A stretch of 63,971 nucleotides of DNA, filler included, from Stramenopiles sp. TOSAG23-6 (lineage: Eukaryota), in NCBI GenBank assembly GCA_900128565.1. It is 3 parts of 3 records of this genome, joined end to end, with 100 filler letters (N's around TTAATTAATTAA, not from the genome) between each part and the next. Parts side by side here need not be neighbours in the genome. Positions count along the whole stretch, not along the records: positions 1 to 22,444 come from LT636014.1; positions 22,545 to 44,974 come from LT636015.1; positions 45,075 to 63,971 come from LT636058.1. One strand, given 5' to 3'. The notes beneath the pieces are model-generated. The model worked only from the letters and a program-made list of their open reading frames with translations, made no database searches and was not told where the DNA came from. Positions 12,218 to 57,112 of this stretch are shown here, in pieces. Each line of letters begins with the position of its first letter. Positions within the stretch are counted from its first letter, which is position 1. The translations under genes and the position numbers were made by a program.

Positions 12218-14271
12218 ATGGATTCTGAGCATATATTCAATGGCATTGCTCAACAAGGGGCTCGAAAAGAGGGTGGAAGAGGCCGTGGAAGAGGTCATGG
12301 AAGTGGTCGTGGAAGAGGTCGTGGAAGAGGTCGCCGTGGAAGAGGTCGCGGTCGCCGTCACCATGCACAAAATGAAGTAAAACGTCACAATAGTGGTCAC
12401 AAAAGAATTCGTGAGAGAAGTTACAGTTCATCCAGTCGTCAGGGTAGTCGTGATGCTCCGCGTACTGTAAAAGATCTGGAACAGCAGCTTTTTTCGCAAA
12501 ATGTGCCGCAAGCACGCAAAAAGAATAATAAAAAACGGAGGAAAAAAAAGAAAAATTCGTTGAATATTAATGTAAATTCTGCGAATAGTTCACAAAACAA
12601 TGGCGTTCGGCGTTCACCTAGAGTAATTGCAAAAACTTTTCAGAACGATACTGAGATGCCGGATTTCACACCAACTATAAGTTCCGGAAAGAAAAAAGAT
12701 TTTATGACTTCTTCTACTTTTGCTTCTTTGGACATTGACACGCGTCTAAAAAGAGGTCTGGCTGAAGTAATGAAATATGTCACAATGACACGTGTCCAAG
12801 AACAAACACTTCCAACTGCTCTAAGTGGAGTTGATTTACTTGCACAAGCTAAAACAGGGACGGGGAAGACTTTGGGATTTCTCATCCCTTCGATAGACAA
12901 CGTCTTACGCTGTCGACAGCGTTTGAGTGGTGTTTCCATCATTGCAATTTCACCGACCAGAGAATTAGCTAACCAAATATGTACAGAAGCATCAAAGTTA
13001 TTATATTTTCATCCTAATTTTAAGACGTGTTCAATGGTGGGTGGAACAAATAAAAAAACTGATATCAAACGTATCAAAAGTGGCATCGATCTTCTCGTAG
13101 CAACTCCTGGCAGGTTGATAGATCACTTGCAGTCAACTCCAGGATTTCGTGAGCAGTGTGCTAGTGTAAAAGTTTTGATTCTCGATGAAGCCGATCAAAT
13201 GCTAGAGATGGGTTTCAGACCTGATCTTACACGAATTATTAGTTATTTACCAAAGGATAGGCAAAGTTTATTATTTTCTGCAACAATGCCTAAAAGTTTG
13301 ATGGATGTGTGTAAAATTGCAGTTAAACATGATTATAAATATATCAATACAATACCAAAAGATCAGCAGCAGACTCACAAAAAAGTTCCACAAGCTGTTG
13401 TCGTTGCACCAGTGGATCAAATTACAAATATGGTTATGAAAGAAATCTCTATAGAGATGCAAAGGCATCCAAATAATTTTAAAGTCATGATATTTTTTGT
13501 GACTGCTCGTTTGACCGGATTTATGGCAACTTTATGTCGAAAAGCTCGTATACCTACTATAGAAATGCATTCAAGAAAAAGTCAATCATACCGCACAAAA
13601 GCAGCCAAACAATTCCGTGATGGAACAAAACTGGTATTGTTTACGTCTGATGTATCCGCGAGAGGTGTTGATTACCCTGATGTGACGCTTGTCATGCAAG
13701 TTGGTATGACTGAACGAGAGCCTTACATGTATGTTTTATTTTTTTTCAAATTCGATTTTTTTTTCATACGAAATTTTGTACCTAACGAATTTTTTTTTGA
13801 AATATTTTTCTAAAATACATTCATCGTCTTGGTCGAACTGCTCGTGCAGCAAGTGGAGTAGAAGGTCGAGGAAAGCTAGTATTAGCCCCATTTGAGTCAA
13901 AATTTTGTCTTTCATTACTTACTGAGTTACCTATACAATTTGAGACGTATGTGCCTTGCAAAGATACTCATCCAGAAGTTTTTACTCATGTGACTCGGAT
14001 GCTGAATGATATAAAAAAAGATCCGGAAATGAGAAAAGCAGCTGCACAAGCGTATCAAGCATGGATTGGATTCTATAATGGTTACTTGCGAAAATTACGT
14101 TGGAACAAACCTGAACTCGTTCGCATGGGGACGGAATTTGCAAGGTCTATCAATGCATTGGACGTACAAGGAAACCCTCCAGCTCTTCTTCGACGAACTG
14201 TTGGGAAAATGGGACTGAAAGGAATTCGTGGTCTTACGATTGTGAACTCACCAAATGATTTAGTCTACTAA
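12218..14271 (+). CDS. DEAD-box RNA helicase (Mss116/RH25-26-like), 2 exons (12218-13728, 13821-14271)
   Basis: AQAKTGTGKT, SPTRELA, TPGRL, DEAD, SAT, ARGVD; motif VI YIHRLGRTAR forms only across the intron; N-terminal RG repeats. Confidence 0.92.
13729..13820 (+). other. Non-canonical intron GT...AT (92 nt)
   Basis: AT|GTATGT...GTACCTAAC...AAATACAT|T; contains no AG; restores helicase motif VI. Confidence 0.92.
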
Positions 14272-14497
14272 ATTTCTAAATTATTTAGAAAATGAAAAAT
14301 ATGTCGAATTTGAAAAAAACAAAAGTCAAAAAAAAGATCAAAAAAATGCTTGTGAGATACCTTACTTACTATATAGTTCAATCAAAATTAATGAAAGTTT
14401 TATATATAATATATTATTCTTATAAATACACATATATCATTTTGTTTTTCAAGTCATTCTCGATATACCCATATCATAATCGATCCAGCAATTTTGT

Positions 14498-16391: not shown

Positions 16392-18179
16392 TTATGTAAC
16401 TAACATTTTTTTAGCAAATGTGCTCATACAACAACCAAATGCCTGTATAGGTGAAAATGGGTATTTAAAATCTAGAGAATATACATTCCTTCTCACTTTC
16501 CCAAAACGAAGCTGTTCTGTATCAATCCCAAATTCACTTTCTAGATGACATGTGTTGTAAAAAAATATTTTAAAAATTTGAAATTCGTTAGGTATGGTAT
16601 TTGGTACGAAAAGAATAAATTTGAAATTCATGATAAAAACGTACATGAACTTTCCACCTCAAGTAGAAAATTTTTTTTTGACGCTTTCTTTACACGACCA
16701 TCAAAATTGAGAGTCCACGCATTCAAATCTTTATTCCATTTATTGTAAAAAAATATAAAAAAAAAATCGTTAGGTACAAAAGTTTCTATGAAAAAAAAAA
16801 AAAAAAAAGTCGATATTATTTTGAAAACGTACACGATGGCTGTTTTGTACGAAATTGTAATAATTGAGACTGTTCTTGAACGCCCAAAGATGCATATTCA
16901 TTTCTAATAACCTCCTTCTCACCTCCGGTAGGTTTCTCCTTTGTAATTCGATTTTTTTGTTCCATATCAAATCGGTCACAAAGACTCATAAAATTAGCTT
17001 TCAATGCATCTTCATCATCATGACGTGGTAGTATCACTTTCATGTATTTTGGAAAAATATTTGAAAAAAAAATTGTTCGGTACAAAATTTCGTATGAAAA
17101 AATAAATTCGAAATAAAAAAAAAATAAAACATACATCGAGTTTGGCACTCGGGCTAAGATATTAGTCTCAAAACGAATATGGATTAAATCGTGAGCAGCA
17201 TATATTTTCAAAAATACTTTACATTTTGATGTTTCTTTGTTAGGTACAAAATTTGGTATGAAAAAGATATTTATTCAATTTTGAAAAAAACGTACATGAC
17301 TACTTTTCACCTTTAATTGAGGATTTCGTGCTCTATAATCAAAAAGAGAAAACTGCTTTCCAGTCATATTACTTATCATACACCCTAAATATACTGGACT
17401 TGACTCAGATGTTGGTATACTATCTATAGTTGTTAGCCTAAAAGTGTTATTAATTGTACTAAATATACAGAGACCCTTGTGCGTACTATTCATACTAGCA
17501 GCCATGTNTTCGTGAAAAAATATTTTTTTTTTGTCAAAAAGCTTGTTAGGTACAAAATTGTGTATGAAAAAAAATATATATTCATGATGAAAACATACAT
17601 CATAAATTCGCCCGATTGTTTGTGAAAATGCCAAGCAGTAACAAACGCACCGACGTATCGACGAATATATCCTAAACACCATATATCAGACACGGAATCA
17701 GTTACAGGAGATAAAAATGTTGCCTTTTGTCCGTGCATTAGTTGGTGCAGACGCTGACCTTCTGGAACCTCAGCAAAGTCCGTTGTTGGTTTCTCTTTAA
17801 ATATTCCTCGGAGCTTATTTGGATTATCTTTTATTGGTTCGCTTATTAAAGCATTACCCGTAGAGAGATCAAAGAGTTCATCTCCACTAGCAGAATACTC
17901 TTCGTAGGACTCTTCGTCGTCAGAAACATTATTTGAGCCTTCTTGAGAACTGTTATCCGAGTCTTTCTTAGAATCCTCAACATCTACAGTCACAAGTTCT
18001 GCCTGTATGTTGCTTTCTTTTACAGTGGGCGTACTTAATTTATTCACGTCTGTGCTGATTGGCTCACTTAGAATACCCTTCTCTACATTTGATTCAGTCT
18101 CTAAGGGAGCTGCGTTTAAATTAGTTTCGGCTACATCACCGAAAATATCCCAAACGTCATCGAACTTTTGATCTCCCAT
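16392..18179 (-). CDS. Tubby-domain protein, 6 exons (18179-17599, 17503-17296, 17199-17135, 17041-16833, 16737-16645, 16549-16392)
   Basis: Spliced product contains FETNILARVPNSMKV, KQPSWNKDLNAWTLNFDGRVKKASKKNF, LRFGKV, YSLDFKYPFSPIQAFGCCMSTF (Tub C-terminal motifs). Confidence 0.88.
16550..16644 (-). other. Non-canonical intron GT...AT (95 nt)
   Basis: AT|GTACGT...ATACCTAAC...AACACAT|GT. Confidence 0.8.
16738..16832 (-). other. Non-canonical intron GT...AT (95 nt)
   Basis: GT|GTACGT...GTACCTAAC...AATAAAT|GG; restores KQPSWN. Confidence 0.85.
17042..17134 (-). other. Non-canonical intron GT...AT (93 nt, in frame, stop-free)
   Basis: AT|GTATGT...GTACCGAAC...AATACAT|G; restores PNSMKV. Confidence 0.8.
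17200..17295 (-). other. Non-canonical intron GT...AT (96 nt)
   Basis: AT|GTACGT...GTACCTAAC...AATATAT|G; contains an in-frame stop. Confidence 0.8.
17504..17598 (-). other. Non-canonical intron GT...AT (95 nt)
   Basis: AT|GTATGT...GTACCTAAC...AANACAT|G. Confidence 0.8.
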
Positions 18180-21463: not shown

Positions 21464-22443
21464 ATGCCAAAGCGCTGGAAGCGGCGACTCCGAACTCAAA
21501 TGCGGTTGGCTCACGAAGCCAATGCATTACGTGTTCCGAATTCTTCATTGAATAACTCAAAAGTGGTTGAATCAAAGCAGCCCCAGGAATATTTCCCACT
21601 TGACGAAAAAGGTGCTGCTCGTTTTCTTAATGTAGAAGCGATGTCGAAGTCAGATTCCCCTACTGATCTGACGTATCATAGTGCTGGATTACCCATATTA
21701 TATGGTAGTTTAATTGATCTTCCTATTCCTATTCAGGAAGGAAGTGCTGATCTCAAAATAAAGTTAGTCGCCACTGGGGGAGAAATACAGTATTCTGTAT
21801 CTTGGGAGTCTCTCTGCCCAGTAAAGCATTTAGGTGTATCCCCTTCGAAAGTTCAGAAATACATTGAAAGTGAGACATCGCTTAAAAATTCTAATGAAAA
21901 TTCTACAATACCTCCGAGTATTTTTGAAAAAGAAGAGTCACTAGAATTATTGCCCTTAACTAATCTGAAAGGTTCGGACAACATTTCCCTGTTTATTCCT
22001 AAAGCTGGTGTTGTTACATTACATGTGCAAAATAGTAGTACTACCTGGCCCGTAAAGGATGTACATTTTCAAAATTGAATTTCGAATTTTTTTTTTTCAT
22101 AGAAAATTTTGTACCTAACGATTTCTTTTTTTATCTACACTTTTTTTCACAATACATGATGATGTAGTATTACACTACGTTGTCTCTTTAGAACACATTT
22201 GTCCTTTGGTAACGAAACGAAATATCATGTATTCACTTAAAAAGCAGTGTAACGATTTAAATTCGATATATCGTGATAGTCTTAGAGTTGTTGAAGAAAG
22301 TAGTCAAAATTTAGAAACACTTAGAAAGAAATTATGTATGTTTTATTTTTTTTTTTACAAAAAAATCGAATTTATTTTTTTTGAAAAATTTTGTACCTAA
22401 CAAATTTAAGGTTTTTTTTTTNAAANATTTTTNCNAAANACAT
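21464..22443 (+). CDS. Protein with GOLD-like beta domain and coiled coil; 3'-truncated at the linker (exons 21464-22060, 22158-22335)
   Basis: Frames join as WPVKD-DDVVLHYVVSL; GOLD similarity (KAGVVTLHVQNS...W...LHYVV) is tentative. Confidence 0.6.
22061..22157 (+). other. Non-canonical intron GT...AT (97 nt)
   Basis: AT|GTACAT...GTACCTAAC...AATACAT|G. Confidence 0.8.
22336..22443 (+). other. Non-canonical intron GT...AT (~108 nt) at contig end
   Basis: AT|GTATGT...GTACCTAAC...ANACAT; downstream exon missing, several Ns. Confidence 0.65.
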
Positions 22444-22444
22444 A

Positions 22445-22544
22445 NNNNNNNNNNNNNNNNNNNNNNNNNNNNNNNNNNNNNNNNNNNNTTAATTAATTAA
22501 NNNNNNNNNNNNNNNNNNNNNNNNNNNNNNNNNNNNNNNNNNNN
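22445..22544. other. Artificial assembly linker (44N-TTAATTAATTAA-44N)
   Basis: Six-frame-stop spacer; identical structure at 44975-45074. Confidence 0.95.
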
Positions 22545-24788
22545 GACATTGATGGATGCTCTTTTTGTATTTTTGCTTGTTTATCTTGATAACTTTCTGC
22601 TTTTGATTCATTCATATTTACATCCCATGACATTGATGGATGCTCTTTTTGTATTTTTGCTTGTTTATCTTGATAACTTTCTGGGTTTGATTCATTCATT
22701 TTTACATCCCATGACATTGATGGATGCTCTTTTTGTATCTTTGCTTGTTTATCCTGATAACTTTCTTTATAATTAGCAATGTTAAAGTCTTTTAACTGGT
22801 AATCATTTAATTTGTAAGACATCAATTTTTGTACCTGATCATCACCAGAAACAATATCATAAGCAGGTGTCTGAGCAAAATCGGAGGTGACTGCTTCAGT
22901 TCTAATGATATCCATTAAATTACTCGCTCGACGCTTTTTCCCAGTTGATTTCCTGTCCAAGCCTGGTGGATCTGGTAGCATTTCACCAGAGTGATTTATC
23001 TGTTTTTCATATACTTCCTTTCGTTTATTTTCAACTTTAGACATTTGACTATTTGAATATTGAGGTTTAGTAAATATAAGACTTGTTTTCTTCGGGGCGT
23101 TGACTAGTGTACTATTCATACGAACATGTTTCATATTCGTTATATTATCTATACAGAATTCTGTTTTATCATATTCCAAGTTTTTTTCGACATTCATGAA
23201 GTGATTAATCTTTGCTTTTAGAGATATTTTTTCCTCAGTTGACATTTTGCGTGATTTATTCTCCGCAGTAAAATGATTATCGTTGATATTGTATGGTTGA
23301 TTAAATTTCCGAAGAATATCTAGCAAATTAGCAATGTCATCAGTAGTACCATCCTGATTGACATTTCTATTATTTGCTATAGATGGCGTATCTTTTATAT
23401 TACATCGATTATTTCTATTGCTTGATATACATGGCGCGTCGTTCATATTATGCTCATTAAAAGAAAAAATAGAATTTCTTATATTATGTTCATCATATGA
23501 AGAAATAGATTTTTCCGCATCGCATAATGCATCATTTGCAATAGTCAACGCGGCAGTTTCTGCATTCATTTGTGTAGTAATTAGAAGGTTTCTCTTTTTT
23601 GCTTCAACTAACTCATGTCGGTCTTTTAGTATCGATTGGATTTTTATTTTCTTTACTTTCTGTTTTGCATCAGCTTGAATTCTTACAGATCTGAGAAGCG
23701 CCTCTCTTGCATCAAGTGCAAATTTCTTTGCCTTTTCAGCTTTCTTGTCAATGTCGTCATTTACTATATTTGATACATTTTTGTTCTTTACAAATCTTTT
23801 CAAAGTAATTAACTTTCGAACGTTATTGGCTAATCTATTTTTGGTTTTAATTGTACGTTTTGCTTGTACAATTTTAGTATTTGACATTTTTCCGGCTTTC
23901 TTGTCAATGTCGTCATTTACTATATTTGATACATTTTTGTTCTTTACAAATCTTTTCAAAGTCATCAGCTTTCGAACGTTATTGGCTAATCTATTTTTGG
24001 TTTTAATTGTACTTTTTGCTTGTACAATTTTAGGGACTTTCTCGACTTTTTCAGAAGATTTTCTCCTTTTATTTTTTCTAAATCTATCAATGCTTACAAG
24101 TCTTGCAATCACAGAAGGCGATTTGATTTTTTTACTTGAATTTTGATTCAAAGTTGCATTTACCATTTGTTTTCCAGATATTGTATCATGAGATTCTTTA
24201 TTCTTTTGATGGTGGCGTTTTTTTTTATGTACAACTGGTTGTAGATGAGTCGATTTATAATGTATTGTGAAAAATTATGTCACAAAAAAATTCGTTAGGT
24301 ACAAAATTTAGTAAAAATAAATAAATTTGAATTTAAGTATGAAAACGAACGTGTCTCGCACCTCCACCTGCAGCACCCCAGTCGACAATCCACTTATCCT
24401 TTTCTGGATCCCATAATCTTAATGTACCGAACATATCTTTTTTACTACCTGCTATAGCACGTACAGTACATCCTATTTTCCAGGGTCGATCTGGTTTTCC
24501 AACATCTTTTTTTATGTTACTTATTGTTTTACCTCCAAGTTCCTTCCAACTTATAGCACCATCTTGATTTACATCATATGAATCAAAAACGATAAGTATG
24601 GCTTCAGTAGAAGGCATGGGTCTAATACCTAATTTTTTGATACCTCGTACAAATTCACCATAGGAAAGTCGGAAGTTTTCATTCTTGTCAGAAGCTTCAA
24701 AAAGTTGCTTGTGTGTTACACCTTTTTTTTTAAACTGTGCCTTTATCCATTGTGCCTCTTTCTCACTTGACGCTTTTCCTTCCGCCAT
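22545..24788 (-). CDS. EF-hand protein with internal repeats, 2 exons (24788-24351, 24259-<22545), C-terminus lost in gap
   Basis: DKNENFRLSYGEF and DVNQDGAISWKEL EF-hands; joins ARH-YKSTHL; 156-nt-period duplication ~23739-24032 and 84-nt tandem repeats 22545-~22766. Confidence 0.75.
24260..24350 (-). other. Non-canonical intron GT...AT (91 nt)
   Basis: AC|GTTCGT...GTACCTAAC...AATACAT|T. Confidence 0.78.
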
Positions 24789-34619: not shown

Positions 34620-34669
34620 AAAATTAAAAAATTAAAAAATTAAAAAATTTCATTTTTAAAACATTTTTT

Positions 34670-44974: not shown

Positions 44975-45074
44975 NNNNNNNNNNNNNNNNNNNNNNNNNN
45001 NNNNNNNNNNNNNNNNNNTTAATTAATTAANNNNNNNNNNNNNNNNNNNNNNNNNNNNNNNNNNNNNNNNNNNN
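44975..45074. other. Artificial assembly linker
   Basis: 44N-TTAATTAATTAA-44N. Confidence 0.95.
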
Positions 45075-45246
45075 TAAATGTAATAAAGATAATTTCATAT
45101 AAATGTAATAAAGATAATTTCATATAAATGTAATAAAGATAATTTCATATAAGTACAATTTAACAAGATATAATGTAGCGAAAACGAAACACTTCAAACC
45201 CTAAACCTAAGAAATGAAAGTACAATTTAACAAGATATAATGTAGC
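45075..45246. repeat. 25-nt x3 tandem repeat plus a 29-nt duplication flanking a spacer with AAACCCTAAACCTAA
   Basis: TAAATGTAATAAAGATAATTTCATA x3; 45151-45179 = 45218-45246. Confidence 0.8.
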
Positions 45247-45394
45247 ATATATTTATACTTATATATATAGATATACTTATGAGTAATTGAAAATAATAAA
45301 GTAAAAGTAGAAAATATTTTAAAAATATACGAATTTGAATTTCCAATATTTTTTTTATACTTTTTAATAAAATGTTGCTTTTTCAATATACTCT

Positions 45395-46540
45395 TTAATA
45401 AAATGTTGCTTTTCCAACCCGCGTCGGAGTTGCTTCTTGCATGTCAGAACGATTATCAGATAATTTAAAAGCATTCTTTGATAATGCACATGTATTGTAA
45501 AAAAATATTACAAGATTTTTGTCATTAGGTACAAAATTTCGTACGAAAAAAAAATAGGCAAAAAAAAAATAAAAACGTACATCTAGTTGCAAGACAAAAG
45601 CATAACTTTGAAAGTATTTCAAACATATGATATACCCCATTATGATTGATTCCTTCAACACCATCAAACGGCAAAATACAACCATGTGCAGTGAAAAAAT
45701 ATTTTCGAAAAATAATCGTTTGGTACAAAATTTTCTATGAAAAAAACATCTAGGTAAAAAAAATTAAAATAAAAAACGTACATTTGTTTCTGCTAAAAGA
45801 GAACCACATGTCGGAGCTAATAAACCTTGAATAAGACAACCAACAAAAGATAATAATGCACCTAAACAAATCAACTTTCTTGCTGTTGGTGTTCCCCATG
45901 ATACAACTGGGCGACAACAGTTACAAAAGAAAGATAGAAATATCGTAATAAATAACGAAAAATTTAAAAAGACTCCTAGGTAACCTACAACATAAAAGAG
46001 ATCATACTGTAAAAAATTAGGCAAAATTTTCTCCGACAATACACTATACCCAACAAAAAACAATGAAAGAACTTGTCCCATGATAAACATAAAAGAATAT
46101 AGTCGACGACTCATACAAGCAGACATTAGAAATACAATAATACACAATTGACCAACAGATATTCCTTGAAAACACATTGCAACTTTCCATACAATGTCAT
46201 ACTTTTCACGAGCACCTTCAGGACAACGGATACCATTAACTATTTTTCCTCGTATAACTATCTTTCCAGGACACTCTCGATGATAATATATATGATGACA
46301 AAGACCTGCAGCTAGAAAACTAAGGGCAAAAGTACAAAGAAAAGAAGTAAGCAGGTTATACAAAGTACTTTGCGTTGGTTGAAGAGAAAAAAAACGACGG
46401 AAGCTATTGATTCCCTTTGAAGGAGGCTTACAAAAGTTTAGTAAAAGTGCTGCAAGACAAATAGCAGAGACAATATAGTTGGTGAGCCATGTTGATGTTG
46501 CTTTATCCGTGCCAAATGTATACAACAAACGACCAGGCAT
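45395..46540 (-). CDS. Multi-pass membrane protein, 3 exons (46540-45782, 45683-45581, 45489-45395)
   Basis: About 7 hydrophobic helices; GLCHH and INHNGVYH His motifs; frames join ETN-GCILP and ATR-CALS. Confidence 0.75.
45490..45580 (-). other. Non-canonical intron GT...AT (91 nt; mirror copy 63466-63556 +)
   Basis: AT|GTACGT...GTACCTAAT...AATACAT|GT. Confidence 0.75.
45684..45781 (-). other. Non-canonical intron GT...AT (98 nt; mirror copy 63265-63362 +)
   Basis: AT|GTACGT...GTACCAAAC...TGCACAT|G. Confidence 0.75.
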
Positions 46541-46917
46541 ATTATTATTTTAGTAAAATAAGAATAGCGATGATTGTTTGTTTGTTTTGTTTTTATGAAA
46601 AAATTTAAATTCTTTTTTTGGGAGCGAGCGAAACTTTCTTGAAAAAGCGAAAGAAAATAAAATTGAGTACCCGGTAACAGTTTAAACTCGCTCTCAAGTT
46701 TTTTAAAAAGTCCTCTTCCTTCCTTCGTTCTTCGTCGTCGTCTTTGTCGTCACGTATCTTCTTGCGGTTTGTTGGTAATTATATTACGGATTATACTAAT
46801 ACGTACCGGGTGGAAGGCATACTTCCTATTGTATTGGATACTACAAAGGCAGTACAGGTACTACTACACCTCTTGATTTACTTATAATTATATCACTTTG
46901 TTGCTCACTAAAAACAA

Positions 46918-47982
46918 ATGGTAAACATGAAAAAGCTTATCAACACTTTAGTGGTTTTTGTTGCTGCAATTGAAGAAGGTGTTGCTGCCAAGTGTCAGTG
47001 TAATGATTTGGGTTATTTGGTTCAATTGTATATTAATCGACTTAGTGACAGAGACAGACGAGAGAGACGATTGGGTGAGGTCAAAATGTCGGATTTGGAG
47101 AACTTGATTTTGGAAACCTGTACTGCTGAGTGTCACTATTCTGAATATTTTAAAGATTTATTATTAGAAACATTTTCTCATAGTGATTTCCGAATAAAAG
47201 AATGGCGCTACCGTCATCAACATTATTTAAATTGTAGTATTTTTGAGCTAATAAAAATATGCGAAAATGGATACGAGCTCCAACTACAAGCCAATTGTAC
47301 TCATAAGCAGGACGGCGACTACTGTATAATAGAAGGAGAAACCTGTTTCAAAGTACATTGTGACAAAAAACCCCAATATTGCAAGGATACATCTATTGAC
47401 AGCAAATATCACGTTGAAACACCTAAGTGTCCCGATGGAAAAATAGATGAGACTTGTGAGTATGATTGTGTTGAGTATTATACAAAGAATGACCCGGACT
47501 GGAACATTAAATGCTTTGCAAAGGATCATTTAGATGGGGATTGGAAATGGGTCAAAGACGGTAACAAAACAAAACTAACGGATGCCAACTATGATTTGTT
47601 GTGTAAATATAATTGTGAAAATGAAAAGGGCTTTAACAAAAACGACCTAAAGATTGAAAAGAATAAACTAATACCAAAACTTGCAACAACAGAAGTTACA
47701 GATTGTGCAGCTAAAATTAATAAAAACGCTAATGATGCATTTACAGGTTTTAATGATTCATTGGATGAAATCCAGAAAAAAACACAAAACCTTTCAACTG
47801 ATGAGATAAACGTAGTTCAAAACATCAAAAATGATATTACTACGATAATGACTGTGACGGATATTCCACTTAAATATTGTCCTGCCTCATCAAATAATGC
47901 AAATATATTTGGCTTGGTTGTTACTGTCATGGTTCTTGTAATTTACCCGTTATATTTTACTTGTTATGACATTTTTAGATAA
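46918..47982 (+). CDS. Cys-rich secreted/surface protein with C-terminal hydrophobic anchor
   Basis: Signal-like N-terminus, many Cys, C-terminal TM. Confidence 0.7.
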   Translation: MVNMKKLINTLVVFVAAIEEGVAAKCQCNDLGYLVQLYINRLSDRDRRERRLGEVKMSDLENLILETCTAECHYSEYFKDLLLETFSHSDFRIKEWRYRHQHYLNCSIFELIKICENGYELQLQANCTHKQDGDYCIIEGETCFKVHCDKKPQYCKDTSIDSKYHVETPKCPDGKIDETCEYDCVEYYTKNDPDWNIKCFAKDHLDGDWKWVKDGNKTKLTDANYDLLCKYNCENEKGFNKNDLKIEKNKLIPKLATTEVTDCAAKINKNANDAFTGFNDSLDEIQKKTQNLSTDEINVVQNIKNDITTIMTVTDIPLKYCPASSNNANIFGLVVTVMVLVIYPLYFTCYDIFR

Positions 47983-48045
47983 CTTGCGTTGGTGTTAACA
48001 TCTTGAAATTGAGAAATAATAAACAATACATTGAGATGTATACTC

Positions 48046-48171
48046 TCACAAACTAAATATATCTTGTCACAAACTAAATATATTTTGTCACAAACTAAAT
48101 ATATCTTGTCCCAAACTAAATATATCTTGTCACAAACTAAATATATCTTGTCACAAACTGAATATATTTTG
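48046..48171. repeat. 21-nt tandem repeat x6 (TCACAAACTAAATATATCTTG)
   Basis: Read directly; mirror copy near 60875-61000. Confidence 0.9.
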
Positions 48172-48603
48172 TAGAGTTTGACATTCAGTCACTTGACTCG
48201 CGATAAGATTCAAATACTTCCAGTTGTTTGATGTGTTGACAAATACCTAAAATTCAAATATTGTTCAATATAGTTATTGTATTGAAAGAGTCAACATCTG
48301 TATATTTCAAATGGAGTCCAACATAATTTTGCATTCAGGGAATCTACTCAATATCCTCCTTACTTTACTTTTCCTTCTTATTTTAATTTCATCATAAGAC
48401 TTGTTCAAGAAAAGCCAACTTTTTTTATTTGATAATTATTTACTAATTTTTTACAGCACTAAAAATACAATAATTTTATTTTTAATAAAAAAAAAGACTT
48501 GAACTTTTATATACAATAGTATCAATATATGTGACTTGTATTTCATACACAATAGTATCATTATAAAATGTACTATAGAAAGACTTGAAAAAATATTAAA
48601 AAT

Positions 48604-49723
48604 CTATGTAGCAATATAACTTGGTACGGTAATGTCAACATCACTTATATCTTTAGGTACTTGAAAGTCTTTGTCAACTGGAGATATTTCCGCAACTCGA
48701 CGGAATATTTCTCCCATGCCAGAGTCATACCCATTGTTTGCTCTAACGGTGCACATTGTAGAATATTCATATTCATCCTGGTAGTATACCCCTTGAATAT
48801 TCGATACGCGACCTGGATTTGGTTTCCCAGCAGTACTGGCAACTGCAGAAATATTAGCAGTAGCATTGTGTTCATTGGAAGGTACATCAAAGAACATACT
48901 CAAAATAATATGTATTTTGGAAAAATATTTCAAAAAAAAATCGTTAGGTACAACATTTCGTACGAAAAAAATCGAAATTGAAAAAAAATAAAACATATAT
49001 AACCATTGTCAGATAATGTTGCTCCAATTAAATGTCCGTTTGAATCACATCGTAATTCCGCGGCGTCTCTTCTTAGCGTAGTAGTTCTGCCTCCTCCAAA
49101 TGGCTGAAAGAAAGGCTCGTCCAACTTCTTTTCATTGTCACATGGATGAATTTTGGGGAAATATTTCAAAAAAAAATTGTTAGGTACAAAATTTCCTACT
49201 AAAATTAATTTTGAAATTCATGATAACGTACATTTCCCATAACTACAAAGTGATACACACGAGGTCCATCTTTTGTCGTCACACATTTTGTATCAACATG
49301 GAGAAAATCCTGTGTATCACAAACACATGGCCAACAGCAATAATGCATAAAACCAAGACGATTACTACCTTTCGAACCAACTAAAGGAAGACGTAATAAA
49401 TATCTATTGTAGTCATTGGGAAATACAGGTGAACCTGAGACGGCACAAAACCCAGAAAACATTTGTAATAGTTTTTTATGAGACATCTGAGATGATCTGT
49501 TTAACAAAAATGATGCCCAAAGATGTGATGCAGCATTTCGATTGCCATACTTGAAGATTTTATTATATTCTCTGTGTAAGTACCTCACAGTCGACTTTTC
49601 ATTAGAACCAGTCCAGAATGACATTTTTCCATCTTTTCTTGTACACTTAGATGCTGCATTTGTATACTTCAACAACATGTATAGAAAAATATAAATAATC
49701 AAACATGCTTGTGTAGAAATCAT
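48604..49723 (-). CDS. Secreted Cys-containing hypothetical protein, 3 exons (49723-49232, 49145-48999, 48909-48604)
   Basis: Signal peptide; FCAVSGSP and CCWPCVCD; joins MGN-PCDN and DNGY-IILS. Confidence 0.75.
48910..48998 (-). other. Non-canonical intron AT...AT (89 nt; mirror copy 60048-60136 +)
   Basis: AT|ATATGTTTT...GTACCTAAC...AATACAT|A; same family with G1 to A. Confidence 0.7.
49146..49231 (-). other. Non-canonical intron GT...AT (86 nt; mirror copy 59815-59900 +)
   Basis: AT|GTACGT...GTACCTAAC...AATTCAT|C. Confidence 0.78.
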
Positions 49724-49973
49724 CTTTGAAAGTAATGGAATGTAAAGAATGATTCGAGATTCCCTTCTTCTTAATAGTCAAGTTGCGTAAAGTACGAAGG
49801 TCGAGGTGGAACACAAGCTAATTTGCTACCCAAAAAATTGAAAACGTTCCTGTGTCTTTTTGCATTCAAACAAAAAAGAGTAAAAAAAAGTAGGAACACA
49901 CACACAATCAATTTCTTTATATATATATTACTTTCAATAGAGTATACATTTAGACGGCTATAATTACGTTTCA

Positions 49974-51479
49974 ATGCCAGTGAAACAGCTACACCTTATC
50001 ACCGAGAAAGGTTTTTTTCGACGCTTCATTGTCTCTTTAGTTCTTCTCCTTTCATCTTGTTTGCTAGTGTACCTTCATTTACGTGAGGCTGCTGAAGACC
50101 TCTTTGAGGCAACAAAGTTAAAATTACTCAAATCTGCACACCGATATGCTTGGTGGTCTGCTATTAGCATTTTGTCATCCAGTTGTTGTATCATTCAACT
50201 CGGTTTAAATGCGCTAAACTTTGGTTGTGTTGGGTTTAATACTTATTTAGGTCCAGCTCGGCCTACTCTATTGGCAGCGTCACTCTTATTACAAGTATCC
50301 TGCTGGACAGTCGCATATTCAAGACCTTGGCTTTGGGTTCCGACAGCATGTTCTTCAACGTTATCAATGTTGCTTACATTTATGCCAGAAATGCTCGATA
50401 GATTTTCAAAGCAGGGTTCGCATACTCGTCATCTAGGTACCAACACAACCGGAAAAATAGCAAATGGAACAGCTGAAAAAATAGCAAATGGAACAGCTGA
50501 AAAAATAGCAACAGCCACGTACAAAATAGAGTCGCTGGGTTGTGCAAGTTGTGAGGCTACCATTAGACGTATATTGGATAATGATAATCGAATTGGGATG
50601 CATACTGTGAGTGCACGTACACAAAGTGCAGTGGTTTCTATTCTTGATATTGAAAAGATGAACTCAATTGCAAAAGAACTTTCTGTCACATTTGGATCCG
50701 CTGGATTTCCAGCTTCATTAGCCTCACTTTCTAGTAGTGCTACTAGCACCAACACGGATATCAATGTTGAAAACAAAATTAATGATCCAGTTGATGTATA
50801 TACCACAGAGGAAGAAAATAGTTTCAAGAAAAAAAATACAAGTTGGAGTGATGAATTTTTAGGTGCAATTGTCGGTGGTTTACTTGGCTCATCGTGTTGT
50901 ATACTTCAACTTGGGCTGAATATTCTCACATCATTTCATATTCTTCATGGAATTGGTTGTGCTGGATTTAATAAATATTTAGGTCCACTTCGACCATATC
51001 TTAGAACTTGTACGGTTATTTGGATGAGCTATTTATGGTTTCAACAACTGAAACCTGTATCTATTTCAGATACAAAAAATAATACAAAAAATAATACAAA
51101 AAATAATATAAAAAATAATACAAAAAATAGTGTTCGTCATCATCGCCGACTAACAGCTGCCACTCTTCTCTGTATTGTATTGACATTTCTACCAGAAATG
51201 CTTCTTTATCTTGGAGGGCCATCTCTGGCACCATCCGCTGTAGGTTCCGAAACTATTGAGCTCAATATTGATGGAATGGGTTGTGAAGCATGTCAGAATT
51301 ATGTAAAAGGAGTGATTGAAAACAATAGTGGTGTTCTTTCAGCAGACGTCAGTTTTATCACTGGATCTGCGTCCGTATGGATACAAAGATCCTGGAATTT
51401 TGATTTATTTGCAGTGAAAAAAAAGTTAGAAAATGATGGCTACAAAGTATCTACAAAAGAAAGTTCACTTGAAAAATAA
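49974..51479 (+). CDS. Heavy-metal protein with two tandem (MerT-like TM + HMA) units
   Basis: SSCC..QLGLN...GC.GFN.YLGP.RP occurs twice; HMA motifs SLGCASC and GMGCEAC. Confidence 0.78.
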   Translation: MPVKQLHLITEKGFFRRFIVSLVLLLSSCLLVYLHLREAAEDLFEATKLKLLKSAHRYAWWSAISILSSSCCIIQLGLNALNFGCVGFNTYLGPARPTLLAASLLLQVSCWTVAYSRPWLWVPTACSSTLSMLLTFMPEMLDRFSKQGSHTRHLGTNTTGKIANGTAEKIANGTAEKIATATYKIESLGCASCEATIRRILDNDNRIGMHTVSARTQSAVVSILDIEKMNSIAKELSVTFGSAGFPASLASLSSSATSTNTDINVENKINDPVDVYTTEEENSFKKKNTSWSDEFLGAIVGGLLGSSCCILQLGLNILTSFHILHGIGCAGFNKYLGPLRPYLRTCTVIWMSYLWFQQLKPVSISDTKNNTKNNTKNNIKNNTKNSVRHHRRLTAATLLCIVLTFLPEMLLYLGGPSLAPSAVGSETIELNIDGMGCEACQNYVKGVIENNSGVLSADVSFITGSASVWIQRSWNFDLFAVKKKLENDGYKVSTKESSLEK

Positions 51480-51506
51480 ATTTAAAAACATCAATCTTTA
51501 TTTATA

Positions 51507-54500
51507 TTATTGTATTTCGCGAATTTCCTCTGCTGTTTGTTTGATTTCATCCCAATCTTCCATGAGATTTTGAAGCGTATTAGAGCTTTTCTCTAAACTC
51601 ACTCTCAAATTAATGTCTAACGAATTTCGTATTTCTTTTAGTTCAGTTGACACCAACTCTACACATTGAGACATTCGTTGCACATTTGCCATCAGTTCAG
51701 CATCACCCTCCTCAGTATCAAGCGCCATCGACCCATTTACTGGAAACCAATCGATACGATTCTCGGTAATGCATTCACTAACAAACTGTTCGACGCCATT
51801 ATATTCACTATTATCTTTAGTTTTGATGTGTATCATATATTTTAGATAATCCCACATATTATGTTGCTCTTTGATATGTTGAGTAAAGTTAATTCCTTCG
51901 CGCTCAAACTTGTTTCGATCAATATTACATATAAAACAAACATTACTCATATCTTCATACTTTTCATTCTTTGCTTCACGTAAACTACCAAAAGTGTCGA
52001 TAATAATACCAAACACTACATTAAGTAATACAATATTAATTGCAACAAAAAATGACATATCAAAGAAAAATTGACGAGAAATCCAACGAGAATCGGTCAC
52101 CTCATATGATTCAATTATATCACCAACTCCGCCACCTGCACGAACACCCAAATTGGACATTGCAATATAGCAAGTCCATAAATATTCGCATTCATTGTTT
52201 TTCCATGATTCTGGCCATGCTTGGAAATTAATCATTGTAAAAATAAACAAGACAAACATCATTAATCGAAGTGTCATCAACAATTGTAATCTAGGATGAA
52301 CTACGGCCATGAGAACTGCTCTTGTTGTTGAATCTCGAACTACCACATCCAATAAATGCAATGTAAAGAAAAAGTAATTTCCAGCAACGCCTAATGCAGC
52401 CATTACAGCATACCATAGGTAGTATAAAACGGGTGTCTTTAGTAAAACTAAAATGATGTTATCTAATTTTTCAAATTCTGGTGGAACTTTTACTGCAACA
52501 AACAAGAGAAATATGAAAAAGGATGCACACATTTGAATAATACCCAACATTTGTATCAACGTTTCGACTCGAGAATCTGTTAATCCCCACAAATCTCCTA
52601 AAGTATTTTGTACAGATAATTTTGGTACCAAAGCAGTTCCCTCACTTGACGAATCATTTGGATTCTTGCAATCGTCTCCGCTGACACAAACACCATACTG
52701 ATAACTTAAGAGCAGGATTAAATTGATACATAATGCCAAGTAGTACGAAATCTCTTTTGCCAGATTAAGATTGCCACCCGAAAAAATATGATGCATTCCC
52801 CATTTTGACATGTTTGACAAATGATGCATTTCAGTGTATAAACCAACGGACATGTCGAGGAATCCTCTTAATTTCGTCTCTGCATTCGTTCTTTCTACAT
52901 TTTCAACAACCCAATCTTGTGAAACTTTGACTACATGATCATATAATTCAGGTGATGCAAAGAAAACTCTGTGTAATTTACCAATCCAAAAGATTTCTAC
53001 CGAACTCATTTTTGTATTTAGCCAACTCCAAACACGAGACCCTTCCACGTGTACTTGAAACCATTCTGTATTAAAATCTTTTAGCATCAAAAGTAGCGAA
53101 CCAACGTCACTTGCGCATTCCAAAACATTGTCTTTTCTTTCATCTGTTTCATCAGTAGAAATTTTACTATTTTCAATGAATAACGTTTCCTCGCGCATAA
53201 GTTTTAAATGAGCGAATATATTATTCATATTCAATGCACCAAGAATAGCATTGTGGATTATTTTATCTGTTCGACCTTCTAATAACCCGAGAAGTAATAA
53301 TATGATAGATCCATACGTTTCTTGGGACTTTTCCCAATGGTCGTCGTCATTATTATTATCATCACAGTCATCATCCATATCGAGTAAAATTTCAGTACTT
53401 GCTATTTGCACAGCTTTTGGAGTCTCCAATTCATCGTCCATCTTCTTTTCATCAATACTAAATTTTTCATCCAGATTTATCGTTACTTCATTTTCCAAGG
53501 GACTTATTCGTTTCACGTTTCTATTGTTAGTTTTATCATCAGACAATTTGGATGTTTTGGGCATTTTACCATTATTAATTATGTTTAATTTATACACTTC
53601 ATTCACCTTTTCAGTCATTTTTCGTTCATACATTGAGAGTATATAGTGAATTAATCTATTACATAAATCTAGTAGATTTGTATTACAAGCTAAATACTTT
53701 TGGTTTTCATAACAAGGCCCTTGAACAGACTCCACAAGAAAATCCATTATCTGAGCCAAGACTTCCATATTACTTTCATTAATATTACTACCAAGTCGGG
53801 CGGAATATTCCATGACAATACTAAATATATTAACCACAGTTTTGTTATTAGGCTGCTCGCGGAGAATATCCTGATTCTTAGTATAATGCCCTTCCATCAG
53901 TAGTCGTAACATTTCCAATAACTCAATGTTTTGCTCATTCGTAAATGTGAAAGTTTTCTCACCAGGTACCATTTGTGGCTTTAGTTGTTCCATAATTCCA
54001 TAAAAGAATGATTCACTATTACCTGAGTTTAGATACTCCCAAACACGAGATTGTGCTTCAACGTTTCCGCCACCATCACCATGCTCAACAAGAATAGCAG
54101 TAGCTACTTTACCTGCCAAGTACCTTACATCTGGGGGTAAGCCCATCGAAATAAGATCAATACAAATATCGAGAGCACCGACATTTACTGCTTGATCTTG
54201 TAGTATATCCCTATCCTTTGAAAGTTCTGTTCCACAAGAATCTATGTACGTTAACAATAATTGTAGCCCTCCTTTGGTTTCTGACTCGGCTATTGCTATT
54301 TCTTCTTCATCAACTCCAAGCACCTTGTGATATTGTTTATTACCAGAAACTAAACGGCGTCTTATTAACCATACTACTCGATGCAATATGTTGGCTACAT
54401 TCACAGTTTCATTTTCATTGTTCTTTTTCTTTATACGTTCGACAAGTTGACCAAGTTCCTTTTCAATATTCTCTTTGATAATACCAGAATTTGGCAATAA

Positions 54501-57112
54501 AGAAGTGGATATTAAATCAAAACAACGACGTTCAATATTACGACCCGAGCCTAGAGAAAGTTTTGTATCAATTGCATTCGTTGTAGAGATATCTCGAATA
54601 GAACCAACATTTTTTTTAATTTCGTGTGAAATAAAACGCAATTTTACTAATTCCTCTAAACCAGCAGTGCTACTTTCAAATATTTGTTTTCCAGTTTCTG
54701 ATTTCACATTTGCACTGATATTTCTTATTGATGACATATAATCTGTGATTTGAGACATAATGGCCTCAAACTGATCTTCGGGTAAATCGCTTCCATAGCG
54801 TTCACATAATTTTTGTACAATAGGGAATACAAAGTAGTGAAGAAAGAGTACTAAATTGTCCTTATTTGAAGTAATTTGCTTAACAGTTTTCGCACCCTTT
54901 TTACAGAGCCAAAAGTTTCTCGTTTTTGGTATTTTCATTGTTGTTAGATGTGCAAGTATTAGGTTTGGTTTCATCTCTGCGTAGTTTTTCATGTACATAT
55001 TAAAAAATTTGAGCAATTGAACTAATTCTGAAGATGATGCCAAAGGTTTCGTCTTTGTCTCTGCCTCTATGGTCATGTGATAAAACAAATACAAGAGAGG
55101 CAACTTTACATTCCACGCAACATATTTATCAAGAATAGCATAAAGTAATGATGACCAGTTATACAAACTTTGTACTTTCGCCTCTGCAACATTGAAATCT
55201 CCATCACAACAGTTTGCTAAAAGTCGTATTAAATTTACATGATACAACAATAATGGTTCCTCCATACAATTTGGTTGTTGCATAAGTTTAATACGAACTT
55301 GATACTCGGGAGACTTTTGGTCTGCGTACAGTAATAATGTCTTTTTCATATATCGAGAATGTGTAATGATATTTAACACACGCATCTGATTTTGCCTACT
55401 CGCAAGGTTGATGGTGTGTAATAGTTCGAGATATTCGTATTTTGGTTCATCTAAGTCAGCCAACTTTATAACAACAGCTTCAAGTAAATTATTTGATACT
55501 CTACAGGATAGTTCTTCGTTTCCTTCAAATATTGCACATAAGAGATCATTTGACTTTGGTACAAGTCCTATTCTACCTACAATTTCATCAACAAAACCAA
55601 ACAACTCTTCTTGAACTTCCTTATGCTCCTTTGTTAAACTTATAAGAAAGTTATTAAATGCAGTTAACATTTCAATTACATCTTCCTCTATCCCAGATAA
55701 TGCAAGACTATCAACATTTTTATCTATTAATTCATTACCATCTATATCTGTGATAATATCATCGTCATCATCGTCATCGTCTTCATCACCTGGAACATCA
55801 ACCTTTAGCATCTCATCAATTAAATCATTAATACCCAAATTTAATATGGCAGTCTGCATCTCTGGCATTGGTCTAATCTCATCGTTTGCTGCTGCTTCAT
55901 TTGCTTCAGTCTTGCACAAATCTTCGATCTGTCTGAGCCATTTCGTTAATTTTCTTAATTCATCAGACACATAATCTTTATCTTCAGACTCACCCCAAGC
56001 TTCATACGCTTCTACCGAACATTGAATTTTCTGGGCTAAAGAGCGCGCAGTTTCATATTTTGTTGCTAAATCATCATTCACAATTAGCTGTGTCTTTTCT
56101 ATGGCAGATACTAAATATGAACGTTGACTGTAGTACGATAAAAGTAAACACATGACTTCACCCACAAGCTCGGTATGATTGTACATGAGTAAATCAAGAC
56201 ATATATCAGTGATATCACCATCGTTAGATTCCTTTGATATGTTTGCAGTTTCCGTTGAAAGCATTAGAACATCTAATTCGCAATATTTTTTCTGATCAAA
56301 TAGGCTTCCAAAAATATCATTTATAACTGCTAAACCATTTTGTTTTGTAGCGGGATTTCGTAATACTTCTCTCCCTTCAACTAGGAATTTTCTATACGCT
56401 GCATTAGTCTTATTCAGCACAGCGTCATTATTGTTCAAAGAACCACCACCAACTTTTGATTGAAATAGCTTCATAAAAATTCCTAATCGAAATTCAGTGC
56501 TAACATCAGTTACTAAACGTAGCATACGAACAAGCTCAAGTTTTGCCTCCATGTGAGGTGATGTAATACGTGTCAATTCATAACGGTTATCTTGGGGATC
56601 TTCGTAATCTATGAGAGTCATGCTATTTTTTGCCATTAAAAATAAGGCTCGAGCAAGTTTTGCAGCGCGAATTAAACGTAAAAGCCGAAGCATTCGCAAT
56701 AACCTCAGCGTTCGAACTATGTATTTTGGAAAAATATTTCAAAAAAAACCCCGTTAGGTACAAAATGTAGTACGAAAAAAAATCGAAATTGAAAAAACAT
56801 AAAAAACATACATAGTGTTTGCACTACTTTTACCTCCACCGCTACTGGAAGATGATGAAGAATTACTTCCCCCAGATGCTAGTAAGGCTGCCCAATCTAC
56901 TGCAACAATAATGAAATCAATTACACAGAGCCAATCTAAAAAATATCTATCACTTCCCATTGCCCAACATCTAAATACAAAATCAGCAGTAAAAAGGGCA
57001 ATAAAGAAATTTTCTAAAAATTCCATGAATCCAGACTCCTCATTTGCATCCATCGAAAGTGATATTCCACCTTGTATAACTGATAAAATAGTCATTACAA
57101 TAATAAATATCA
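51507..57112 (-). CDS. IP3-receptor/ryanodine-receptor-family Ca2+ channel with an extra voltage-sensor-like domain; 5'-truncated (exons >57112-56812, 56718-51507)
   Basis: RIH-associated LRLLMEGH..NQDILREQ..VQGPCYENQ; pore GVRAGGGVGD; FGIIIDTFGSLR; CFIC..HIKEQHNMWDY; S1-S4 with RTLRLLRMLRLLRLIR. Confidence 0.9.
56719..56811 (-). other. Non-canonical intron GT...AT (93 nt)
   Basis: AT|GTATGT...GTACCTAAC...AATACAT|AG; in-frame stop inside; the AG 2 nt further would frameshift. Confidence 0.85.

Follow-up and report, generated by a model that had tools for sequence, protein, structure and literature searches.

The introns of Stramenopiles sp. TOSAG23-6 (GenBank assembly GCA_900128565.1) were analysed in a stretch of 63,971 bases in total, which consists of three gene-dense contigs of this uncultured marine stramenopile and is called the window here. 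The 25 unique introns found in it probably form one introner-like family, each copy of which would bring along a full set of splice signals with a non-AG end. We favour this reading because the introns are homologous over their whole length, fall into subfamilies, show linkage between distant positions, have very many near-identical copies in metagenome data and are placed only in genes and in the sense orientation, and because two of them are missing from the ORF of a relative. The family departs from the known introners in its non-AG end and in being the sole intron type seen in the window.

Frames and homologues favour GT and AT as the intron boundaries

Twenty-four copies were catalogued by their motifs and the reading frame and were used to build a profile for scanning the window; a 25th, diverged copy in a Rieske gene was added later. 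The counted set comprises unique introns and excludes the duplicates in the mirrored part of the third contig (see below). The introns are 86-131 nt long with a median of 95 nt, have an A+T content of 80% and occur at a density of about one per 2.3 kb (25 in 57 kb). The profile scan recovered only the catalogued copies, four mirror duplicates and one weak partial match.

Boundaries of the type GT...AT were found in 23 of the 25 introns. The 5' dinucleotide is GT in 24 introns and AT in one, the 3' dinucleotide is AT in 24 and TT in one, and 20 introns close with CAT. In 21 of 24 introns the GT/AT boundaries agreed with the longest frames on either side, the rest being a copy at a contig end and two copies with short downstream exons. 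After removal of the introns, 13 multi-exon genes, including a Tubby gene with five introns, gave open reading frames (ORFs) with no internal stop.

The junctions were then compared with homologues. Over the intron at 13729-13820, which interrupts motif VI of a DEAD-box helicase, relatives and Phytophthora read ..TERE(P/Q)YIHR(L/I)GRTARA.. without a break. Protein P0001, from a 9.5-kb contig of a relative and about 70-80% identical, has an unbroken ORF of 674 amino acids at both intron sites of the TRAP1 gene. It aligned without gaps over intron 1 (EFNSRPV-M-SAESADV versus EFNKRKVVSAESADV, hyphens marking the junction) and over intron 2 (EMAKY-VAEQLFDNC versus EMAQVVAEQLYDNC). The positions of the Pfam HSP90 and Tub profiles carry on from exon to exon. 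The frames and homologues support the view that these are real introns with a non-AG 3' end. None of the 25 ends in AG and the homologues support the AT junctions, as the original prediction had proposed in naming a non-AG acceptor. A GT...AG reading does not fit. An AG that is not used as the junction occurs between the branch motif and the 3' end in 8 of the 25 introns, TRAP1 intron 1 among them.

An exonic AT precedes 19 of the 25 introns, and a reading as AT...AC, shifted by 2 nt, therefore yields the identical mRNA at these sites. The introns without the exonic AT are those at 3422, 10301, 16832, 24350, 29530 and 37819. The shifted register leaves six irregular 5' ends and six irregular 3' ends among the 25 introns, the GT...AT register one of each. 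From these counts GT...AT is the preferred register, with some reserve, as only the six introns lacking the AT distinguish the two.

The copies are alike beyond their splice signals

The aligned consensus reads atGTAYGTTTT, followed by a spacer (often with ..AATTTCRAA..), TTTTTCRTACGAAATTTTGTACCTAAC GA, a T-run and (G)AAATATTTTTYCAMAATACAT. Twelve alignment columns are invariant and 25 nearly so (37 in total), about half of the 94 columns are conserved, and the relative entropy is about 81 bits over the 94 columns. The branch motif GTACCTAAC is present in 20 of the 25 introns. With at most one mismatch it occurred 38 times, compared with 7.0 +/- 2.4 expected, a number reached in none of 100 shuffles. 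Measured to the A of CTAAC, the distance from the 5' end is 52-67 nt in 22 of the 25 introns, and that from the 3' end is 32-45 nt in all but one. Near the 3' end, AAATATTT is found in 15 introns, where it starts 20-22 nt from the end. Among the 25 introns, TTTCGTACGAAA and TTTCATACGAAA each occur in four and TTTCATAGAAA in three.

The mean identity over the 300 pairs of the 25 introns was 0.669, compared with 0.554 for shuffled sequences, where the top pair reached 0.663. In 22 of the 25 introns the nearest neighbour was 0.73-0.91 identical, which clearly marks these 22 as one sequence family, and the flanking exons come from unrelated genes. For the introns at 3892, 27296 and 10301 the nearest neighbour was within the shuffled range. 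The upstream spacers were compared after removal of the 5' 9-mer and of the 20 nt before the branch motif. Their similarity was 0.325, compared with 0.291 +/- 0.006, and was reached in none of 200 dinucleotide shuffles. Since both the identity and the spacer scores exceed those of the shuffles, the likeness is real and goes beyond A/T runs and the core motifs.

These results bear on several statements of the original prediction. The six stretches that it cited read as described, and the cited pairs are alike over their full length, with identities of 0.89 (13729-13820 and 25556-25646), 0.81 (22336-22443 and 38463-38566, with Ns in the first) and 0.88 (48910-48998 and 56719-56811). The similarity outside the core motifs, which it had set as a test, is above expectation by the dinucleotide shuffles. 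The family is real, and it extends beyond the predicted range of 13729-56811, with further copies at 3422, 3892 and 10301. Of the predicted recent introner burst, the introner-like repeat family is supported, whereas 'recent' goes too far, given that even the best pairs of the window share only 81-91% identity.

Subfamilies and the ends of the introns

The copies that start with GTATGT contain ..TTTTATTTTTTTTC AAATTCGA.. or ..ACAAAAAATCGAATT.. and end with CCAAAATACAT. The GTACGT copies have CAAAATTGAATTTCGAA or ATCATGAATTTCAAATTTA and the end TCACAATACAT. Whether position +4 is T or C goes with whether position -8, some 85 nt away, is A or another base (9/2 versus 3/11, Fisher p 0.005). This linkage is a subfamily signature.

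Inverted termini of 6 nt, ATGTAT/ATACAT, were found in subfamily A only. Elsewhere they comprise 3-5 nt, with ATGTA/TACAT as the common part. The complementary ends of the original prediction thus hold for the GTATGT subfamily, and its 'terminal inverted repeats' shrink to 3-5 nt outside it and show no covariation. Folding of 12 introns gave energies of -4.6 to -14.2 kcal/mol with z from -2.4 to +0.6, and the 6-bp end helix appeared in five of six GTATGT copies and in none of the six others. The end helix and the TTTC/GAAA stem were paired in 78.6% of the alignment cells, compared with 79.3% in column shuffles, with one double change. The C50-G55 pair was broken in 14 of 22 sequences and the pair 6/131 in 11 of 20. 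The predicted palindrome with its TTTC/GAAA stem was accordingly given up; it is exact in four of the 25 introns. The end pairing and the TTTC/GAAA hairpin were rejected as conserved structures, with covariation below that of shuffles and ordinary fold energies. These elements are sequence motifs, not conserved structures.

The exonic AT repeats the last AT of the intron in all eight subfamily A copies and in 11 of the 17 others (p 0.13). The sole intron ending in TT (29530) is preceded by an exonic TT, and by a reading of the six deviant flanks those at 3422, 16832 and 24350 are one synonymous base away from AT. The 2-nt AT direct repeat (19/25) is indistinguishable from a preference in splice sites or targets.

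Membership in a class of miniature inverted-repeat transposable elements (MITEs), which have inverted termini of some 10 nt or longer and occur in either orientation and between genes too, was considered and rejected. The termini are at most 6 nt long, all 25 copies are in sense orientation, and there are no full intergenic copies in the window.

Placement of the copies and related copies in other data

All 25 introns are sense-oriented between open reading frames. The profile scan found no full antisense or intergenic copy in the window, of which about 21% lies outside ORFs of at least 120 codons. The original prediction of sense orientation within coding sequence and of no intergenic copies was thereby upheld, apart from a weak partial match at 10642-10700 on the minus strand.

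One seawater DNA run (X2) and three RNA runs were compared with positions 23500-43499 at a likeness of at least 90% in 30 bins. The summed depth of X2 was 232-11,559 in the seven bins with family introns and did not exceed 11.6 in any of the remaining 23. For the bin that holds the 131-nt intron at 27166-27296, an atypical one, it was 11.6. In total 8,057 contig placements were obtained, 1,885 of them at a likeness of at least 99%; these are pieces, not loci, and related species may add to them. Dozens of X2 contigs turn into unrelated flanks exactly at the intron edge. Fifty-four contigs diverge at 25648/25649, the 5' edge of an intron, into flanks that disagree with each other (agreement 0.37-0.39). 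The X2 DNA contigs break off at subfamily A introns, yet pass through the intron at 37819-37925.

Breaks were also observed in the assembly itself. Contig 1 terminates inside an intron copy (22336-22443). In contig 2 the PHO4 domain ends at profile position 90/350 at the intron 38463-38566 and the frame closes eight codons later (38463-38600). A misjoin of contig 2 within the repeat is probable. An Ion_trans exon (profile 5-87) is joined via 56719-56811 to a long ORF with a C-terminal Ion_trans domain (56719-57200), which looks like an assembly misjoin inside the repeated intron.

A search of 1.84 billion protein representatives with one peptide derived from an intron found three proteins, a EukProt model, P0241 and P0242, which serve as examples and not as a census. 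P0241 has three and P0242 two intron-like stretches amid unrelated exon text. These two are public predicted proteins that read through introns of other genes, and each copy in them begins with M-Y-V-L-F-F, corresponding to AT-GTATGTTTTATTTT with the junction after AT. The 17-mer GAAATTTTGTACCTAAC matched six viral and 31 prokaryote-genome loci, with the intron layout in none of the 37. Two gapped full-intron patterns each gave one match among viral contigs, and neither fits the family profile. All these viral and prokaryote matches are taken as chance hits. A metagenome scan with P0001 did not recover the contig of P0001 itself and returned only three relatives at 34-42% identity (L038-L040).

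Points that weigh against a mobile, spliced family

Several observations speak against the favoured reading. For the RNA data, no splice junction was found among the 15 of 218 joints listed, all of which are cross-matches between intron copies, so that splicing is neither confirmed nor contradicted. Two RNA contigs (records 9 and 10) break off no more than 2 nt away from a predicted junction and have tails that do not align, and a contig of an RNA library (record 20) extends 59 nt into an intron. The RNA cover of the exons is thin and the uncovered parts are uninformative. In the polyA RNA contigs the intron bins had a depth of 14.8-3,054 (X7) and 21.6-2,049 (X8), compared with at most 7.9 and 4.3 elsewhere. 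This enrichment is about the same as in DNA, and efficient splicing predicts otherwise. The intron excess in RNA could come from DNA carry-over, intron retention or stable excised introns.

Mobility is likewise met by contrary points. The best pairwise identity in the window is 0.91 and nothing shows recent activity. The single intron spanned by a population contig is present in it, and no case of presence/absence polymorphism came to light. With at most 6 nt the inverted termini are short, and the AT duplication is inseparable from the termini because AT is its own reverse complement. No Pfam match to a transposase was obtained in 62 ORF and exon scans of the window. P0001 might be a transcript. 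Selection on the signals alone explains part of the likeness, as many positions are conserved. Finally, the statement that all introns belong to the family is based on 57 kb, and a family-based search could miss unrelated introns.

Proposed mechanism

Each copy is proposed to bear a long set of signals. A yeast-like 5' end, GTAYGTTTT, would be followed by a block of about 25 nt that ends in the branch motif TTTTTCRTACGAAATTTTGTACCTAAC, and the 3' portion would consist of the T-run and the block (G)AAATATTTTTYCAMAATACAT. The transcript would be cut before the GT and after the final AT of the CAT, 32-45 nt beyond the branch A; AG would be unused, and any AGs between the branch A and the 3' end would be ignored. 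The A in CTAAC is presumably the branch point. Removal would be the work of a spliceosome of the U2 type in which AU has taken the place of AG as the 3' site.

The unit would have been copied many times into transcribed genes, nearly always directly 3' of an exonic AT. Young copies (the GTATGT subfamilies) would be alike from end to end, and in older copies the spacers would have drifted while the signals were kept. We infer that the family is or was mobile, and two ways of spreading are considered. A DNA element GTAY...ATAC could have duplicated AT on insertion, in which case the intron would consist of the element and one of the two AT copies. This option is favoured by the exonic AT at all eight subfamily A copies, by the deviant flanks that are one synonymous base from AT and by the TT intron after an exonic TT. 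Alternatively, reverse splicing into sites between AT and G would give the same orientation and placement without a duplication. The two routes cannot be separated.

The original prediction had offered an extended set of cis signals that replaces AG recognition as the alternative to a burst. The long signal set was retained, its end pairing and hairpin components were not, and the two alternatives do not exclude each other, as the family carries extended signals and looks copied. A wider view, which we hold tentatively and with more doubt than the family itself, is that the 3' splice-site rule changed genome-wide from AG to AU after loss of the ancestral introns and re-population by a single introner. 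The first and last intron bases would then be G and U rather than G and G. The introner would supply the 5' site, the branch site and the 3' box, the AT of the insertion site would become the last two intron bases, and essentially every intron of the organism would belong to one family of about 95 nt.

Alternative explanations

The introns might be vertically inherited and immobile, and might have converged under an exceptionally long cis-signal demand, as in intron-poor genomes with a strong consensus. This would account for the conservation of about half of the 94 columns with 37 invariant or nearly so, for the same blocks being kept in all introns seen, including the diverged ones, for a top identity of only 0.91, and for the failure to find a transposase, long inverted termini or polymorphism. 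It does not readily account for the spacers outside the blocks, which beat the shuffles (0/200), nor for discrete subfamilies with arbitrary common strings such as CAAAATTGAATTTCGAA or ACAAAAAATCGAATT, nor for the linkage of distant positions (p 0.005). Thousands of placements at a likeness of at least 90%, 1,885 of them at 99% or more, and the ORF of a relative that lacks both TRAP1 introns also point to copying, and convergence of independent introns on one length of about 95 nt and on the spacer text is improbable. We consider inheritance unlikely, and keep it in view because selection for long signals explains part of the likeness.

A second alternative leaves the 3' rule unchanged. The true register could be AT...AC, with the cut 2 nt upstream at both ends and perhaps U12-like machinery. 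Such introns are known with the terminal pair A...C, the exonic AT before 19 of the 25 introns makes the mRNA the same in either register, and the copy starting with AT (48998, ATATGT) becomes regular. Introns of the U12 type can end in various ways at the 3' side, and their 5' and branch motifs are long and conserved. Against this, six of the 25 introns would start with TT, TT, TA, AC, GT or TC and six would not end in AC, where the GT...AT register has a single exception per end. The hallmark of the U12 type is a 5' [AG]TATCCTT and a branch motif TCCTTAAC about 10-20 nt from the 3' end. Here the 5' end is GTAYGT and not [AG]TATCCTT, and in 24 introns the branch A stands 32-45 nt before the 3' end, where the U12 type requires some 10-20 nt. 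The AT...AC register is thus improbable in our view, more so than inheritance. Membership in the U12 type was rejected on the 5' GTAYGTTTT, the branch motif GTACCTAAC and the distance of its A from the end. Removal at the DNA level, as for the internal eliminated sequences of ciliates, would fit short, A+T-rich elements with a 2-nt direct repeat and short inverted termini whose removal restores ORFs, and also a relative's ORF without two of them. All 25 are in sense orientation, however, with the asymmetric layout of GTAYGT, CTAAC and T-run that is typical of spliceosomal introns, the boundaries are AT and not TA, the elements are kept in metagenome DNA contigs, and no intron-sized deletion was found at intron sites among the joints and omitted-letter rows listed. 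Stramenopiles are not known to have nuclear dimorphism. DNA elimination is hardly credible on these grounds.

Mis-spliced public gene models

Three coding sequence (CDS) models of EukProt, GSMAST32.278.1,.2577.1 and.1373.1, match exons of the window (12656-14268 and 34673-36999). Where the exons align, the models agree with the window almost throughout, with 98.5% identity over the second DEAD-box exon. The TRAP1 model has VIAES in place of VMSAES and misses the four conserved residues VAEQ. For its first intron, the sequence suggests a GT donor together with an AG acceptor that lies 3 nt beyond the CAT. In the two DEAD-box models the intron is translated (YVLFFFKFDFFFIRNFL) and helicase motif VI is skipped. 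As judged from the sequences, the EukProt junctions at these sites are worse than the GT...AT junctions. The public gene models for the organism are broken because the introns end in AT and not in AG. The proteomes, completeness scores and gene counts for the group are likely understated as a result of the mis-spliced CDS models.

Individual introns of the window

On contig 1, the intron at 3422-3515 (+; 94 nt, GTATGT...ACAT, phase 1, exon flank TT) is based on a profile E of 6.5e-11, the frames and splicing to an ORF. At 3892-4022 (+) a diverged intron of 131 nt (GTACGT...ACAT, phase 2) with an internal TATTTTAACA repeat gave a partial profile match (E 4e-7) and is backed by the frames. The diverged intron of the Rieske-domain gene at 10301-10397 (+; 97 nt, GTGTAC...GTAT, phase 2) has the branch motif ATAGCTAAC, and its boundaries come from the frame only. 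The DEAD-box intron at 13729-13820 (+; 92 nt, subfamily A1, ..EREPY-I-HRLGRTARA) is placed by the profile, the frames and homologues. Next to these, the weak partial match at 10642-10700 (-; E 8.8e-4) reads TTTTTTCGTATATAATTTCGTATCTAAC. It lies 3' of the stop codon of an Asp/Asn beta-hydroxylase gene, between two convergent genes in a 3' untranslated region (UTR) or intergenic spacer, and may be a decayed or dead copy or a UTR intron.

The Tubby-domain gene on the minus strand has five introns. Intron 1 (17504-17598, 95 nt, one N inside), intron 2 (17200-17295, 96 nt, end ATATAT), intron 3 (17042-17134, 93 nt, subfamily A1, branch GTACCGAAC) and intron 4 (16738-16832, 95 nt, end AAAT, exon flank GT) were set by the frames and splicing to an ORF. 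For intron 5 (16550-16644, 95 nt) the Tub profile covers positions 185-211 in exon 5 and 222-255 in exon 6. A query with the Tubby exons for longer proteins found none. The remaining introns of contig 1 are a 97-nt copy at 22061-22157 (+; GTACAT...ACAT; frames, splicing to ORF) and the profile-supported subfamily A2 copy at 22336-22443 (+), which contains Ns and, at the contig end, has no downstream exon. Single Ns are scattered within this copy and within 17504-17598.

On contig 2, frames and splicing to an ORF place the introns at 24260-24350 (-; 91 nt, GTTCGT...ACAT, exon flank AC, in an EF-hand gene recognised by Pfam), 25556-25646 (-; 91 nt, subfamily A1), 29530-29639 (+; 110 nt, GTACGT...ACTT, the sole TT end and exon flank TT too) and 34172-34263 (+; 92 nt, GTGCGT...ACAT, in the CBP3 gene with the Pfam domain Ubiq_cyt_C_chap). 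The 131-nt intron at 27166-27296 (-) is family-like in its 3' half only; it has a partial profile match, the frames and a low metagenome depth. TRAP1 intron 1 (35294-35398, -, 105 nt, subfamily A2, with an unused internal AG) is supported by colinearity with P0001, the frames and Pfam, and TRAP1 intron 2 (34793-34890, -, 98 nt, GTACGT...ATAT) by the colinearity of EMAKY-VAEQLFDNC with P0001. The intron at 37819-37925 (+; 107 nt, exon flank TA) fits the frames and is intact in a spanning metagenome DNA contig (X2 record 7). The subfamily A2 copy at 38463-38566 (+) follows the truncated PHO4 exon at the probable misjoin.

On contig 3 all introns are on the minus strand and four of them have a mirror copy on the plus strand. 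The profile supports those at 45490-45580 (91 nt; mirror 63466-63556), 45684-45781 (98 nt, branch GTACCAAAC, also splicing to an ORF; mirror 63265-63362), 48910-48998 (89 nt, subfamily A1, the sole AT start, ATATGT; mirror 60048-60136) and 49146-49231 (86 nt, end TTCAT; mirror 59815-59900). The fifth, at 56719-56811 (93 nt, subfamily A1), lies between the Ion_trans exon and the RIH_assoc/Ion_trans ORF and is placed by the frames and Pfam.

The window and its genes

The contigs are joined by linkers of the form N44-TTAATTAATTAA-N44 at 22445-22544 and 44975-45074, with stops in all six frames. The G+C content across the window is 33-41%, and the ORFs are eukaryotic and tightly spaced. Pfam-type families identified among them include a DEAD-box helicase, the large subunit of DNA primase, TRAP1/HSP90, a RIH_assoc/Ion_trans channel and Tubby, and also CBP3, Pam16, Ras, a Rieske protein and an SPX-PHO4 protein. 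The top matches of the TRAP1 ORF are the Joint Genome Institute (JGI) protein P0001 and a EukProt CDS labelled GSMAST32, followed by named oomycete proteins at 57-59% identity and named ochrophyte proteins at 53-57%. By its label alone, we take GSMAST32 to be an assembly of marine stramenopile group 3 (MAST-3). Rfam and tRNA scans of the window gave no matches.

In the third contig, 45075-51933 is the perfect reverse complement of 57113-63971 (no mismatch in 6,859 bases). The mirrored arms flank a unique centre of 5.2 kb, and the junctions lie inside ORFs. This structure looks like an amplification or assembly chimera, and the introns at 59815-63556 were left out of the count because they are mirror duplicates (four artefactual copies). 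At 30030-31858 a seawater-metagenome contig (X2 record 4) matches both flanks, with about 47 letters replacing 1.8 kb. The segment holds an ORF of 579 amino acids (30026-31762, -) without a family match, and no convincing inverted or terminal repeats were found around it. The difference is either an indel polymorphism or another misassembly.

Significance and comparison with known systems

Few signals in eukaryotic gene expression are as conserved as the terminal AG. If the family is as described, a free-living lineage with uniform CAT ends and textbook GTAYGT and CTAAC signals would be a natural experiment on how the 3' site is chosen, both by recognition of the U2AF type and in the second catalytic step. 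Introners would then be known from heterotrophic marine stramenopiles too, and the family would mean that an introner need not fit the canonical rule of its host. In practical terms, the repeat family breaks and misjoins assemblies. In the literature searched, neither GT-AT introns nor repeat-family introns are described for MAST-3. Term searches in the MAST genome papers PMC5778133, which speaks of introns in its methods only, and PMC8163842 gave no mention of such introns, and PDF supplements may bear on the point. One introner survey takes annotated introns as its starting material and tests unusual sites with RNA data (PMC12130899). Surveys of this kind would miss the AT-ending family, since annotated introns are their starting point. 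In one mirusvirus family, AT-AC introns with a WCTAAC branch consensus are reported to be enriched (PMC12768974). Under the wider view of a changed 3' rule, the intron signature, read as AT-AC by gene finders, may mark the viruses of the organism as well.

The present introns resemble the introners of Micromonas and Aureococcus in being near-identical short sense introns without coding capacity, in unrelated genes of a marine picoeukaryote, and Aureococcus is likewise a stramenopile. Introner elements of Micromonas pusilla and Aureococcus anophagefferens were reportedly described by Worden in 2009 and Huff in 2016. The algal introners have canonical GT-AG sites, terminal inverted repeats and duplications of constant length (Farhat 2021, PMC7789003). 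As in these introners, the intron here may be made up of the element and a single copy of a short direct repeat. Unlike them, it has an AT 3' end, inverted termini of 3-6 nt and a putative duplication of AT only, and apparently all introns are family members. The nearest published case with non-canonical ends, in the literature searched, is that of the Amoebophrya introners. These have inverted repeats of 8-20 nt with predicted hairpins, variable cut sites and no consistent terminal dinucleotides (PMC7789003). A repeated family, non-canonical boundaries, short direct repeats at the borders, complementary ends and the lack of an internal transposase are common to both. In contrast to Amoebophrya, GT...AT is uniform here (23/25), the strong 5' and branch signals resemble those of yeast, and covariation does not support the pairing.

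In the tunicate Fritillaria borealis, non-canonical introns are said to derive from MITE insertions (Henriet, 2019). Related work is in bioRxiv 10.1101/2025.08.15.670264. Both are lineages where transposon-derived non-GT-AG introns would have become the norm, and the spliceosome (U2AF) must have adapted. The boundaries in Fritillaria are diverse and the 5' GT is often lost, whereas here the GT is kept, CAG is changed to CAT and the family is homogeneous. With AT-AC introns of the U12 and U2 types the family shares the non-AG end and long conserved 5' and branch motifs, with AT...AC possible for 19 of 25. It differs in a 5' motif without ATCC, in a branch to 3' end distance of 32-45 nt and in a register that fails in six of 25. 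The signals GTAYGT and (T)ACCTAAC closely resemble the near-invariant budding yeast consensus (GTATGT/TACTAAC). Intron-poor genomes with such strong signals have AG ends and introns with unlike lengths and spacers, whereas here there is about one intron per 2.3 kb with homology over the whole length.

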